A stretch of 60,550 nt of DNA, filler included. It is 6 parts of 6 records of this genome, joined end to end, with 100 filler letters (N's around TTAATTAATTAA, not from the genome) between each part and the next. Parts side by side here need not be neighbours in the genome. Positions count along the whole stretch, not along the records: positions 47,244 to 60,550 come from DRR723986_7898; 5 more parts are not named here. One strand, written 5' to 3'. How positions within the stretch are numbered: the first letter of the stretch is position 1; every line of letters starts with the position of its first letter. Positions 54,287-57,662 of the stretch are shown here, in pieces. A program made the translations under genes and the position numbers. Below the pieces are notes generated by a model. It was not told the DNA's origin and did not search any database. It saw nothing but the letters and a program-made list of their open reading frames with translations.

Positions 54287-54389
54287 TTATTTTGGCGCCG
54301 GTATGCGTGAGGGTTTAGCCGTCGAAGGCCCTTGGTTTATTCCGGCCCGGACGATGTAACCAGGGATGTCGAATTCGCGAAGAGATCTA

Positions 54390-54941
54390 TTATGGATGGG
54401 GTTCTGTCAGTGCCAGGAAATGTGCGGGAACGGCATCCGTCAGCCAGACGCCGTTCTCCGTTCTGTAAAACGTGTGCCCCTCCGCCTGCATTGCGCTGGC
54501 CGCGACCTGAAGAATTGCAGGTTTGCCGTGACGGCTTCCGACCTTGTGCGCGGTGTCGCGATCCGGTGACAGATGCACATGGTGCCGGGCCATAGGTTTC
54601 AGGCCTTCGGCCAGAATGGGCGGCAGAAAGCGTGTTGCCGTTCCGTGGAACAGGAACTCCGGAGGCTGTAAAGCTGTGAGGCCCAGTTCAATGTCAATTG
54701 AATGACCCTGACGTGCGCGAATGTGTTTGCGGTCTTCGGAGAACTCGAAGCGTTTCTTGTCGTTGGTCGCGACGATTCTTTCCAGCTGATCCCTTTGGCA
54801 ATCAAGGCCGAGGGCTCTGAAGGCGCCAAGGACATCAGCTACGTCAGCCCAACCGCTGTCTGACAGCATCAAACCGGCGTCTTCCGGTTTGTGTCTTAGC
54901 CAGAAAGACAGGCGTTTCGAGATCTTTGTGTCTGTTTTCAT
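54390..54941 (-). CDS. kptA: RNA 2'-phosphotransferase (Tpt1/KptA)
   Basis: SKRLSFWLRH, DKKRF, IRARQGHS, LFHGT, RHHVHLS, RHG, NGVWL. Confidence 0.96.
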   Translation of the reverse strand: MKTDTKISKRLSFWLRHKPEDAGLMLSDSGWADVADVLGAFRALGLDCQRDQLERIVATNDKKRFEFSEDRKHIRARQGHSIDIELGLTALQPPEFLFHGTATRFLPPILAEGLKPMARHHVHLSPDRDTAHKVGSRHGKPAILQVAASAMQAEGHTFYRTENGVWLTDAVPAHFLALTEPHP

Positions 54942-55066
54942 TGTATTTTTCTTTAAATGTATACTGTTTTCAAATTCTGCGCCCCCTGCGAAAGCGGGCG
55001 AGCGACCCTCAATCGAGGTGGTCTGGTGACAGGACCTGGACAGCCATGGCCTGCAAGGGCCACGCT

Positions 55067-55100
55067 GAAACAGAAACGGCGCAGGTTGCCCCGCGCCGTT
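55067..55100 (-). terminator. Terminator-like hairpin after slipin gene
   Basis: Minus strand AACGGCGCGGG-GCAA-CCTGCGCCGTT then TCTGTTTC. Confidence 0.65.
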
Positions 55101-55105
55101 CTGGC

Positions 55106-56260
55106 TCATGCCGCATTGTCGTCCCGAAGCCGGACGAGGTCGTTCATGAGACCTCCGGTTCCGTTGTGGACCGTGAGCCGGTCGACCTTGCCGGCGATGG
55201 CTTCAAGCGCTTCGAGCTCCTTGAGCCGAAGCATGACCGGGTTTTCGGCCATGACCTTGGCCGTGTTGAGAAGCGAACGGGTTGCGTTCGTTTCTTCACG
55301 GCGCCGGATCACGTTGGCTTCGGCTTCCTTTTCGGCTGCCACCACCTTGATGAGGATCTCGCGCATTTCGCCCGGAAGGATCACGTCCTTGAGGACGATG
55401 TCGGAGACCTCGACACCGATTTCAGCCATGTCGGCCTTGATCTTGGCGGCTGCTTCCGCGTTGACCTCCCCCTTCTTTTCAAGGATCTGGTCGAGCTTGA
55501 GCGCGCCGAGCTGCTTGCGGAACACAAGCTGCAAAGCCCGGTAGAGCGTGTCGGTGAAGTCCTTCACCTCGGTTGCGGCCTTCACCGGGTCAACCACACG
55601 GTAATCCGCGGAGAGGTTGATCCGGATGGTAACGCGGTCGAGGGTCAAGACTTCCTGACCGGTGACGTCGAGAGCCTGACGCTTGAGGTCGATGACCTTC
55701 TGCGTCACGGTTCGGCCTGCCTTCCAGAAGGCATGGACCCCGGCTTCAAGCACCTTGGTGAGCACGCCATCCATGAAGAGAAGGGCGACGCTACCGTCGG
55801 TCACCGGCACGATCACGAACTGCTGCGTCTGACGGGCATCCCCGAGCCGGCGCATGAGCTTCTGCCTGAGGGCCGGGTCGGCAGCCGTGTCGATGACCTC
55901 GAAGGTCCACGGGCCGGCATCCGTCCACAGGACAAGCCGCTCGTCCGGGCCAAGCACGGTGTGGATACGGTTGTCCCGTTCCACAATCGCCACTTCACCC
56001 GGTCCGGTCCGGATAACGGTCAAGTGCTCTTCGGCAACTTGGGGAAGCTTATCGAAGAGCGCCTTCTCGTAGGCCGACCGGAACTGGGGCATTGCCATCG
56101 ACTGGCGCTCGATCACCAGGGTGCCACGGCCATTCTCGAGGCTGTGTTCACCGGGTCCGAGAATACCCTGGAGCTCTCCCTTGCAGATGTGGAGGGCCCG
56201 TTCCGTTTCAGAAATCACTACGCGGGTTCGCCCGCGGATCTTGTCGAGAAAAGTCGTCAT
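55106..56260 (-). CDS. SPFH/band-7 (slipin) family protein
   Basis: Repeated ER.L....G.....L.PG.H units, DLKRQ.L...GQEVLT.D.V..R.N, KDVILPGEM, AN.I.RREET.ATRSLLNTAKVM..NP..LRLKELE. Confidence 0.93.
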   Translation of the reverse strand: MTTFLDKIRGRTRVVISETERALHICKGELQGILGPGEHSLENGRGTLVIERQSMAMPQFRSAYEKALFDKLPQVAEEHLTVIRTGPGEVAIVERDNRIHTVLGPDERLVLWTDAGPWTFEVIDTAADPALRQKLMRRLGDARQTQQFVIVPVTDGSVALLFMDGVLTKVLEAGVHAFWKAGRTVTQKVIDLKRQALDVTGQEVLTLDRVTIRINLSADYRVVDPVKAATEVKDFTDTLYRALQLVFRKQLGALKLDQILEKKGEVNAEAAAKIKADMAEIGVEVSDIVLKDVILPGEMREILIKVVAAEKEAEANVIRRREETNATRSLLNTAKVMAENPVMLRLKELEALEAIAGKVDRLTVHNGTGGLMNDLVRLRDDNAA

Positions 56261-56299
56261 TTCGATAATCCTTCCAATGCGCTAAGGCACGTGGTTGTC

Positions 56300-56647
56300 C
56301 TTTCCGGTGTTGAAGATGGTTGGAGGTTGAGGAAACCGGTCGCTCGTCATGAGGCGTCCGGGGTGAAACGATGAGACCCGAAGAGAGCACGAGGTCTCCC
56401 GGCGGGCCCTTGGCCAGAGGGCGTAGCAGCGGCAATGCGGGTTCCACCCGTTCGAAAACAGGCGGTTCCGGCAAAGCGGCGGCAGAGCCTTTGCCAAAGG
56501 CCGGGCGAAGCGACCTGGCGTCGGCGGTCAGGGCACTTTCACCCGAAGGCAAAAGGGCCAGTCCGCGTTCGCAAGACCTCTCCAGGTCCCCTATGGAACA
56601 GCTTGCATAGCTGCTGGCGTGACAGGCCAGTTCGGCGTTGGAGGCCG
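56300..56647 (-). ncRNA. Putative structured RNA / leader with multiple hairpins, several anticodon-stem-loop-like
   Basis: Dense hairpins including CGGC-CTCCAAC-GCCG, CTGGC-CTGTCAC-GCCAG, CAGC-TATGCAA-GCTG, GCCCT-CTGGCCA-AGGGC and a cUUCGg loop; no credible ORF. Confidence 0.55.
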
Positions 56648-56653
56648 TGTTTT

Positions 56654-56718
56654 TGGAGCGAGAGTTGAACTCGCGACAGTCGGATTAAAGGTCCGATGCT
56701 CTACCACTGAGCTATCCA
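56654..56718 (-). tRNA. tRNA-Lys(UUU)-like element with 4-bp truncated acceptor stem (pseudo-tRNA/tRNA mimic)
   Basis: TGGA TA GCTC-AGTGGTA-GAGC A TCGGA-CCTTTAA-TCCGA CTGTC GCGAG-TTCAACT-CTCGC TCCA; C at position 33. Confidence 0.8.
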
Positions 56719-56793
56719 TGGAGCACATCACAGGAGTCGAACCTGTTGCTTCCGGGGTACACTCCCGGCGTTCAACCGTTAAACTTCATGCGC
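56719..56793 (-). tRNA. Degenerate tRNA-like element (nominal anticodon UGU, non-canonical loop), encoded CCA
   Basis: GCGCATG AA GTTT-AACGGTT-GAAC G CCGGG-AGTGTAC-CCCGG AAGCA ACAGG-TTCGACT-CCTGT GATGTGC T CCA. Confidence 0.8.
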
Positions 56794-56810
56794 GATTGTC
56801 CGATCCTCCA

Positions 56811-56825
56811 GAACAGCATCCGTAC
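56811..56825. promoter_or_regulatory. Candidate alphaproteobacterial LexA (SOS) box
   Basis: GAAC-AGCATCC-GTAC matches GAAC-N7-G(A/T)AC; lies 17 nt upstream of the first tRNA-like element. Confidence 0.35.
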
Positions 56826-57163
56826 ATGAGTGGGCAGGGCCTGATCATGCGGGTGGCGAAAAATGGCCGAACCGTTGATGTCTGTGCCAGTATGGTGACC
56901 GGTGACGAGTTGATACTTCGAGAGCGGGTGCCAATGCAACCGGCAATTTCAAGAGAAGCGATGTTTGTTGCTAATGTGATACAGTATGTTGTATTTTTGT
57001 CACTTTTGCCCAGAGTGCCGGCTGTCGCCCTGGGCGGGGACTTTGGTTGGTTTGAAGCGGTTTCGGTGAAGAACCGTAAACCGCAATCTCCTCGACCTCT
57101 TGCGCCGGGAAGACGGCGAAGGCAAACTCCCGGCCAGATTGTGTTTCCGCCCTGCGAGGACCT

Positions 57164-57604
57164 ATGGCCAACAAACAGTCCCGGTTTCTGATCGATACCT
57201 ATTTTGCCGCCTTCAATGCAGGCGATACCAAGAAAATGGAAAGCCTGGTTGCCGACGACCTGATCCATGATGTCAACCAGGGCGAACGCCGTGTCGGCAA
57301 GGACAAGTTCTGGTCCTTCAACGTTCACATGACGCGCTGCTACAAGGAACGCCTCAGCGACATCGTGCTGTTCGTCAGTGAAGACGGGACACGGGCTGCT
57401 GCCGAGTTCATCGTCCATGGCAGCTATATCGGCACCGACAGCGGATTGCCGCCCGCGAACGGCCAGACCTACAAGCTGCCGGCGGGCAGCTTTTTCGAGA
57501 TCCGCAATGGTCAAATCGCCCGCATCACCACCTATTACAACCTTCAGGACTGGATCGACCAGGTGACGGAAGGTGCGGGTGAAAAAGTGCCGGAAGAGGC
57601 CTGA
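57164..57604 (+). CDS. SnoaL-like/ketosteroid isomerase-related protein
   Basis: YFAAFNAGD, HDVNQG, RAAAEF, RITTYYNL. Confidence 0.9.
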   Translation: MANKQSRFLIDTYFAAFNAGDTKKMESLVADDLIHDVNQGERRVGKDKFWSFNVHMTRCYKERLSDIVLFVSEDGTRAAAEFIVHGSYIGTDSGLPPANGQTYKLPAGSFFEIRNGQIARITTYYNLQDWIDQVTEGAGEKVPEEA

Positions 57605-57662
57605 ACCAAAACCCTGCTTCTGCGCGAGCAGAGCCGGACAGGCAAAATTCATTTGATCAATC

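Follow-up and report, generated by a model that had tools for sequence, protein, structure and literature searches.

Modules in which an SPFH/Band-7 protein is paired with "a novel tRNA-like molecule" were reportedly recognized by Burroughs and Aravind in 2016. A comparable arrangement is the subject of the present analysis. In a stretch of 60,550 nucleotides of DNA (hereafter the window), two abutting tRNA-like elements on the minus strand, element 1 (56719-56793) and element 2 (56650-56721), precede a gene for a soluble SPFH/Band-7 protein, which in turn precedes a gene for an RNA 2'-phosphotransferase of the KptA/Tpt1 type. We propose, with a probability of about 0.62, that the two elements are non-decoding tRNA mimics amid a conserved structured RNA of ~640 nt, which would be the leader of the SPFH gene and probably a partner RNA for its product. 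The closest described class is that of the b7a-tRNAs (band-7-associated tRNA-like RNAs). According to the available text of the preprint 10.1101/312249 this class is a comparative-genomics prediction from 2016, which was without experimental validation by 2018, and its members sometimes swap places with YrlA/Rsr. A full-text literature search on the names and the context of b7a-tRNA found it mentioned only in that preprint, and Rfam holds no family for it.

The RNA of the window resembles the b7a-tRNAs in that it is tRNA-like, both by Rfam matches and by covariation, and is encoded beside a Band-7/SPFH gene. In addition, its SPFH protein is homologous to the SPFH proteins encoded beside RtcB in other Pseudomonadota, and those RtcB-type loci carry a tandem T-arm signature upstream, as is the case here. 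It differs in that RtcB is absent from the window region and from the nearest genome (G001; 99% identical across this region and 99% complete), a genome that also lacks RlaP and Ro60. Moreover, it is KptA that shares the operon (in 21 of 28 Roseibium loci), and the proposed promoter looks sigma-70-like rather than driven by RtcR/sigma-54. The assignment to the b7a-tRNAs rests on the class description in the available part of 10.1101/312249, and not on the original alignment.

A second tRNA mimic that has been proposed as a cofactor of RNA-repair operons is the Y RNA YrlA (RF02553). As far as the accessible descriptions go, it too contains a tRNA-mimicking module, with conserved D- and T-arm features, within a larger non-coding RNA. 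It has a single such module, whereas the RNA of the window has two, the first ending in CCA and the second bearing a loop of the anticodon type. The window RNA could itself be a YrlA-type RNA that tethers Ro60 (Rsr), in view of a weak Rfam match (28.4 bits) across the junction of the two modules (56771-56670) and of the fact that YrlA likewise mimics tRNA and occurs in RtcB operons (available text of 10.1101/312249). However, the match falls far short of the gathering score (69), the nearest genome lacks a gene for a TROVE/Ro60 protein (PF05731), and no PF05731 match was found among the neighbouring open reading frames (ORFs) in the window. Furthermore, YrlA is, in the descriptions at hand, a molecule with a closed acceptor and no anticodon loop, whereas here the CCA end of module 1 is open and the loop of module 2 is of the anticodon type. 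We therefore consider identity with YrlA close to refuted.

The earlier reading of this DNA from the sequence alone (the sequence-only reading) had described two abutting tRNA-like genes on the minus strand, each defective for translation in a different way, and every structural detail it gave was confirmed. Element 1 (RF00005, 38.7 bits, E 1.2e-04 in the 60.5-kb window, gathering score 29; match at 56793-56722) has the acceptor stem GCGCATG/GATGTGC, which forms six pairs including G3-U70 and is mismatched at G7-G66. Position 8 is an A and GTTT/GAAC forms the D stem; the anticodon stem of 5 bp closes a non-canonical loop, AGTGTAC, that has no U33, and the T arm ACAGG-TTCGACT-CCTGT is followed by T-CCA. 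Element 2 (54.9 bits, E 4.2e-09 in the same search) follows with zero spacer, its Rfam match beginning at 56721, within the CCA of element 1. Its D, anticodon and T arms are canonical, its acceptor has 4 pairs only, and the loop CCTTTAA has a C at position 33 and TTT as its triplet; its conserved core lies at 56655-56717, with an acceptor of 3 bp and a 7-nt anticodon-type loop, and there is no CCA. The covariance-model scoring that the sequence-only reading had proposed thus gave both elements above the gathering score with the tRNA model and a negative result with the YrlA model (28.4 bits versus 69). ARAGORN, proposed alongside, recovered element 2 only, as tRNA-Lys(ttt), and did not call element 1. 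In the nearest genome, 53 matches to the tRNA model were found, among which the two elements rank 49th and 53rd (last) by score. Of the 51 others, 46 were typed (five long matches of class-II length were left out), and these include a canonical tRNA-Lys(UUU), the top-scoring match of all, and a tRNA-Lys(CUU).

The two-cloverleaf structure is conserved over a broad set of homologues. We aligned 79 distinct sequences with MAFFT, 58 from Mesorhizobium and 21 of the Roseibium group (20 Roseibium-type sequences and the window), and scored on this alignment the two cloverleaves as written from the window's own sequence. In total, 96.0% of the 3055 cells pair, versus 38.6-49.0% when the partners are slid by 1-3 columns. 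Changes on both sides are seen in 22 of the 39 pairs (216 cells), and none of 500 shuffles attains any of the observed measures of pairing or covariation. Neither module has the conserved anticodon in a 7-nt loop with U33 that marks a decoding tRNA. Of the other two hallmarks, a 7-bp acceptor and a free NCCA end, module 1 largely has both, and module 2 has three conserved pairs and no CCA. Since the same element-specific defects recur across the 79 sequences, "each defective ... in a different way" describes a conserved trait of the family rather than an accident of one strain. The earlier suggestion of selection on shape, rather than decay, is borne out as well, in that compensatory changes maintain the helices in two families, with the features for decoding and charging differing.

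The sequence-only reading had allowed that orthologous loci might carry normal tRNAs, or that the elements might be remnants of phage or integrative and conjugative element (ICE) attachment (att) sites. In fact, the two mimics recur at the orthologous loci together with their complementary defects, and neither an integrase nor any att context is present. Decaying tRNA pseudogenes or att scars would account for the low tRNA scores, 49th and last of 53, and the 3' ends of tRNA genes are common integration sites. Against this, 30 genomes of the family and ~60 Mesorhizobium species keep the pair at the same place and show compensatory changes in it, the flanking genes are syntenic with no integrase near, and paired sites show 3.54 parsimony steps per site versus 9.15 at synonymous sites. 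In view of these conservation and covariation counts we regard decay as refuted; the two elements are neither decayed tRNAs nor att scars, and appear to be genuine non-decoding tRNA mimics.

In module 1, the acceptor helix is 92.9% paired with six of its seven pairs covarying, and the G7-G66 mismatch of the window is the sole unpaired cell at the seventh pair (n=79). An NCCA end is found in 55 of the 79 sequences. The "anticodon" loop varies from 5 to 9 nt and is 6 nt long in 48 of the 79. The A at position 8 occurs in 11 of the 21 Roseibium-group rows versus none of the 58 Mesorhizobium rows. A G3-U70 pair is an alanine identity mark, and together with A73 and CCA it makes up the alanine identity set. 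This pair is present in 41 of the 79 sequences (in the window at 56791 and 56724; columns 25/96 of alignment A2), and the full set in 33, namely in 30 of the 58 Mesorhizobium and 3 of the 21 Roseibium-group rows; element 1 of the window itself carries G3-U70, U73 and CCA. Transfer-messenger RNA (tmRNA) and viral tRNA-like structures are likewise tRNA-shaped and non-decoding, and the occurrence of G3-U70 with CCA in module 1 of many species adds to the likeness. These counts could be taken to suggest that module 1 is a chargeable, alanine-accepting end and that the RNA acts in translation or tagging, as tmRNA does. However, the G3-U70 pair is replaced by G-C, A-U or an unpaired combination in 38 of the 79 sequences and the CCA is missing in 24, and the RNA holds no conserved reading frame or tag-like ORF. 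In contrast to those systems there is, moreover, no conserved alanine identity, tag frame or SmpB context, and the modules lie within an mRNA leader. We consider a chargeable end very unlikely; as G3-U70 is not conserved, it is probably not required.

In module 2 the conserved defects are complementary to these. Its conserved acceptor is GGA:UCC, paired in 78-79 of the 79 sequences, whereas a fourth pair forms in only 14 of 78, and CCA is absent. The start of the module, GGATAGC, is invariant in all 80 SPFH loci collected by protein search (see below), 250-700 nt upstream of the SPFH gene. The loop measures 7 nt in 77 of the 79 sequences and has the format of an anticodon loop, with Y32 in 77/77, U33 in 57/77, C33 in 12/77 and R37 in 74/77. 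Within this format, 33 distinct loop sequences were found among the 79. On the SPFH gene tree (75 taxa), triplet positions 34-36 require 26, 22 and 18 parsimony steps, compared with a mean of 9.15 at four-fold synonymous sites (n=73; 95th percentile 19.4; maximum 29), 8.4 steps per site for the loop of element 1 and 3.54 for paired sites. Between close pairs the triplet differs by 0.28 per site versus 0.08 at four-fold sites. The free positions of the D and T loops of the leader RNA likewise reach 24-26 steps, and unconstrained drift would explain the turnover of the triplet equally well as diversifying selection. The connection with tRNA-Lys(UUU) as the target of PrrC-type nucleases, which had been drawn from the TTT of the window, finds no support because the triplet is not conserved: TTT occurs in few of the sequences, and the nearest genome has its own canonical tRNA-Lys(UUU) and tRNA-Lys(CUU).

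The occurrence of the module was established by searches at increasing distance. When 132 genomes of the family were searched at the DNA level with a query of 251 nt, homologues of nearly full length (171-255 bases aligned) and 70-100% identity turned up in 30 of them, 29 of the 72 of the genus and one from a second genus; the other matches were short and to real tRNAs. At or above the gathering score, Rfam reports tandem tRNA matches, two in 25 of the 29 Roseibium-family loci and one in the other four, with element 2 often matched over model positions 4-67 or 5-66 only. In the extended Roseibium loci the SPFH gene follows in 28 of 28 (one further locus was left out for want of a BLAST anchor), KptA in 21 and a divergent SnoaL gene is present in 25. 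A protein-based scan of the named genomes, from which the best 80 of 292 SPFH relatives were kept, yielded ~20 Roseibium-type and ~60 Mesorhizobium loci (SPFH identity 68-71%). A tRNA-like RNA lies upstream of SPFH in all 80 of these loci. With ARAGORN, 57 of the 80 show a pair of tRNA-like genes, 17 a single one and 6 none. The "anticodons" reported are diverse, which should serve as a warning for annotation, as tRNA finders assign these modules arbitrary amino acid identities. KptA is found in 15 of the 80 loci, every one of the Roseibium type, and the neighbouring genes other than SPFH vary between lineages. In Mesorhizobium sp. WSM4083 (locus L136) a gene of the histidine-phosphatase superfamily (His_Phos_1, E 1.5e-07; 1718-2266 of that locus, plus strand) lies just upstream of the RNA and SPFH.

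Beyond these genera, full-length SPFH homologues were identified in 7 of 401 sampled Alphaproteobacteria, in loci with tRNA-like elements upstream and unrelated neighbours, and homologues with E <= 1e-40 in 20 of 401 sampled Pseudomonadota. In the phylum-level loci, two T-arm motifs spaced 66-80 nt apart precede SPFH in 17 of 19, and an Rfam tRNA match is found at that position in 11 of 15, several of the matches being limited to model positions 4-67, like module 2. A match to RtcB lies directly beside the SPFH homologue (34-41% identity) in 6 of the 10 genomes tested, elsewhere in the genome in two, and is lacking in two. No RtcB was found in the window region and no PF01139 match in G001; as a control for the latter search, PF01139 was found in 10 of 14 named genomes. 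Since SPFH homologues stand beside RtcB elsewhere and the nearest genome has no RtcB, Ro60 or RlaP, the window appears to hold a ligase-less, KptA-bearing variant of the RNA-plus-SPFH module that is seen beside RtcB.

The RNA that carries the two modules is a non-coding leader of ~640 nt, which starts at ~56903 and ends at the start codon of SPFH. Conservation in Roseibium and Mesorhizobium covers everything between a promoter-like block and that codon, and the parts of the leader follow one another as a 5' domain, modules 1 and 2, three short hairpins and a domain at the 3' side that is closed. The long structured RNA around the pair and the SPFH-KptA operon behind it are the decisive context, which had escaped the sequence-only reading. 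The leader has no codon periodicity, its variability by position being 0.106/0.094/0.098 in Mesorhizobium and 0.259/0.242/0.242 in Roseibium, versus 0.056/0.027/0.137 and 0.116/0.083/0.333, respectively, for the SPFH coding sequence. Gap lengths in the leader are mostly not multiples of three, and long stop-free runs do occur, but in inconsistent frames.

The predicted 5' structured domain (56800-56902, minus strand; RNAalifold on 28 Roseibium sequences) consists of a long closing helix with two hairpins. Of its cells 96.9% are paired versus 28.8-47.1% when slid, and 17 of its 30 pairs show compensatory changes, figures that are favoured by the derivation of the structure from the same alignment on which it was scored. 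A homologous block exists in Mesorhizobium. Three short covarying hairpins are predicted after element 2 (approximately 56598-56648, minus strand; RNAalifold, 18 sequences), followed by the 3' structured domain (56373-56590, minus strand), which would be closed by a long-range helix of 13 bp (56590-56578 with 56385-56373). Together, the downstream part of the leader has 74 predicted pairs, 24 of which are compensatory (RNAalifold, 18 sequences). In some Roseibium species (loci L064, L070, L072, L073 and L075-L079) the first hairpin after element 2 is replaced by a third, partial tRNA-like module, made up of a stem-loop and a CGGGTTCGACTCCCG-type T arm.

Upstream of the leader lies the promoter-like element TTGCAT-17 nt-GTATCA (56911-56939, minus strand), which is conserved in Roseibium and has TTGCGA-N17-TATAGC as its counterpart in Mesorhizobium. 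We infer that this block is the promoter, as distinct from a mapped start; a scan with an E. coli-type consensus did not list it. A conserved block at 56950-57010 (minus strand) further upstream contains an inverted repeat of the type GTTGC-N6-GCAAC in Roseibium; positioned between the divergent SnoaL gene and the promoter of the RNA, it could be an operator for a regulator. Expression was followed in assembled contigs of public RNA libraries. Contigs from three studies (X10, 54305-56821; X13, 55141-56894; X1, 54415-56807) run unbroken through the pair, the leader and SPFH, and X10 and X1 reach into KptA. X10 ends at 56821 and X13 at 56894, both past element 1 but short of the proposed promoter, and the contigs of SnoaL begin only after a gap. 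Together, the contigs hint weakly at a start near 56900 and at co-transcription. A size-fractionated RNA run (X4) produced one DNA-like contig of 72 kb and is uninformative.

The position of the modules brings forward the main rival to a partner RNA, namely that they are a purely cis-acting sensor. In that case the modules would bait or compete for enzymes that process, modify or cut tRNA. Their cleavage or occupancy would govern how stable the SPFH-KptA mRNA is or how well it is translated, and no particle would be involved. Several observations are in line with such a sensor: the modules are part of the 5' untranslated region, an E. coli-type scan detected no intrinsic terminator from the tRNA-like pair to SPFH, and the RNA contigs are continuous. 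The loop of module 2 retains the anticodon-loop format around a free triplet, and module 1 offers the acceptor stem and the CCA that an RNase P-type substrate would be expected to have. Damaged tRNAs have, furthermore, been described to induce the rtcBA operon (available part of PMC7790460). On the other hand, ~640 nt with three further structured domains far exceeds the need of the known tRNA-sensing leaders, and the strict pairing with one protein family across differing neighbourhoods suggests that the RNA and SPFH cooperate. We consider an exclusively cis-acting role unlikely, although it deserves more weight than the other alternatives, and roles in cis and in trans could coexist.

The protein that accompanies the RNA is a soluble SPFH/Band-7 (stomatin-like) protein of 384 aa (55106-56260, minus strand; Pfam Band_7 3.8e-28), the gene of which begins 390 nt downstream of element 2 on the same strand. 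No membrane segment is apparent in its sequence. In the predicted structure (predicted local distance difference test, pLDDT, 82.3) two extra N-terminal units of five beta strands precede the SPFH core and a long helix. The best structural match of the model is stomatin (Foldseek 4.2e-14; Z 15). Chains of major vault protein (MVP) are the sole PDB matches that span residues 12-364 (Z 10.7-11.5, 222-255 residues aligned, root-mean-square deviation 4.8-10.8; Foldseek E ~1e-10, alignment to MVP 272/323-717). On its own, the N-terminal part of 141 residues gives weak matches, with Z 5.1-5.5 to SPFH N-terminal sub-domains and 2.9 to the R1-R7 repeats of MVP, and no Pfam Vault repeat was found in the protein. 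The two beta units (residues 1-135, pLDDT 89.4) have no Pfam match and resemble weakly the N-terminal beta sub-domain of HflK, prohibitin and QmcA (Z 5.1-5.5); they may be a duplication of that sub-domain. The vault, formed by MVP and vault RNA, resembles the locus in that a protein of beta repeats, an SPFH-type 'shoulder' and a long helix is paired with a small structured RNA. The likeness is, however, due mostly to the SPFH domain and the helix, and we use the vault as an analogy rather than as a shown relationship.

The KptA/Tpt1 RNA 2'-phosphotransferase is a protein of 239 aa (54390-55109, minus strand), the gene of which overlaps the SPFH stop by 4 nt. It matches Pfam PTS_2-RNA (PF01885) with 3.2e-50 and 171 bits, and the NCBIfam model with 238.1 bits versus a cut-off of 239. 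Its R-H-R-R residues align with Arg16, His17, Arg64 and Arg119 of 7kw8_A, so that all four catalytic residues are kept (their roles in Tpt1 are given in the accessible part of PMC6097658). The solved Tpt1 structures align with residues 61-232, which leaves an N-terminal extension of ~58 residues beyond the matched region. This extension may be due to an over-long ORF call; the distance from SPFH to the onset of the KptA match varies among the other Roseibium loci. On the other side of the pair, an ORF of 288 aa that abuts element 1 (56786-57652, minus strand) has no family match and was discarded as an antisense artefact, the real gene there being the SnoaL-like ORF at 57164-57604 on the plus strand.

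For the function of the leader RNA we infer the following. The folded RNA, either whole or after tRNA-type processing at module 1, would bind the soluble SPFH protein, which is putatively ring- or cage-forming, in a manner resembling Y RNA with Ro60 or vault RNA with the vault. The resulting particle would present tRNA-shaped surfaces, namely the acceptor/CCA end and the anticodon loop, to enzymes that recognize or mend damaged tRNA. In Roseibium the enzyme that the operon supplies is KptA, which removes RNA 2'-phosphates, or modifies RNA phosphate ends, with NAD+.

Several observations weigh against a partner RNA of this kind. In Mesorhizobium and in the other alphaproteobacterial loci examined, no repair enzyme adjoins the module. 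In the nearest genome, neither RtcB, nor TROVE/Ro60, nor RlaP was found; without RtcB, a role in RNA repair therefore has no ligase here. As a single sequence the RNA folds no more stably than its shuffles (z = 0.02), and its minimum-free-energy fold fails to give both cloverleaves, so the case for the structure rests on model scores and covariation, with no support from energy. The RNA contigs, finally, show neither ends, strand nor level, and a contig across two genes is no proof of one transcript.

A more specific form of the particle hypothesis follows from module 2. As its loop keeps the anticodon format while the triplet turns over like the freest sites, the module would imitate anticodon loops that are under attack, and could thus be an evolving bait carried by a vault- or Ro-like particle. 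The attackers would be local anticodon nucleases or other tRNA-damaging agents. The particle would be the place where damage is dealt with, whether it has hit the bait or genuine tRNAs docked next to it, and in Roseibium KptA would act there at 2'-phosphate or phosphate ends. This proposal is speculative, and we hold it to be rather improbable. If true, it would supply the long-missing physiological context for bacterial KptA.

The locus is compact and tractable: it has a single promoter, a single structured RNA whose two tRNA mimics are disabled in different ways, a single soluble SPFH protein and KptA. Cultivable Roseibium carry the module, as do Mesorhizobium, in their case without KptA. 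The locus bears on the questions of what soluble SPFH proteins scaffold and why RNA-repair operons keep tRNA-shaped RNAs. It also bears on what the substrate of KptA may be in bacteria that have no known route to RNA 2'-phosphates, a question raised in the accessible part of PMC6097658.

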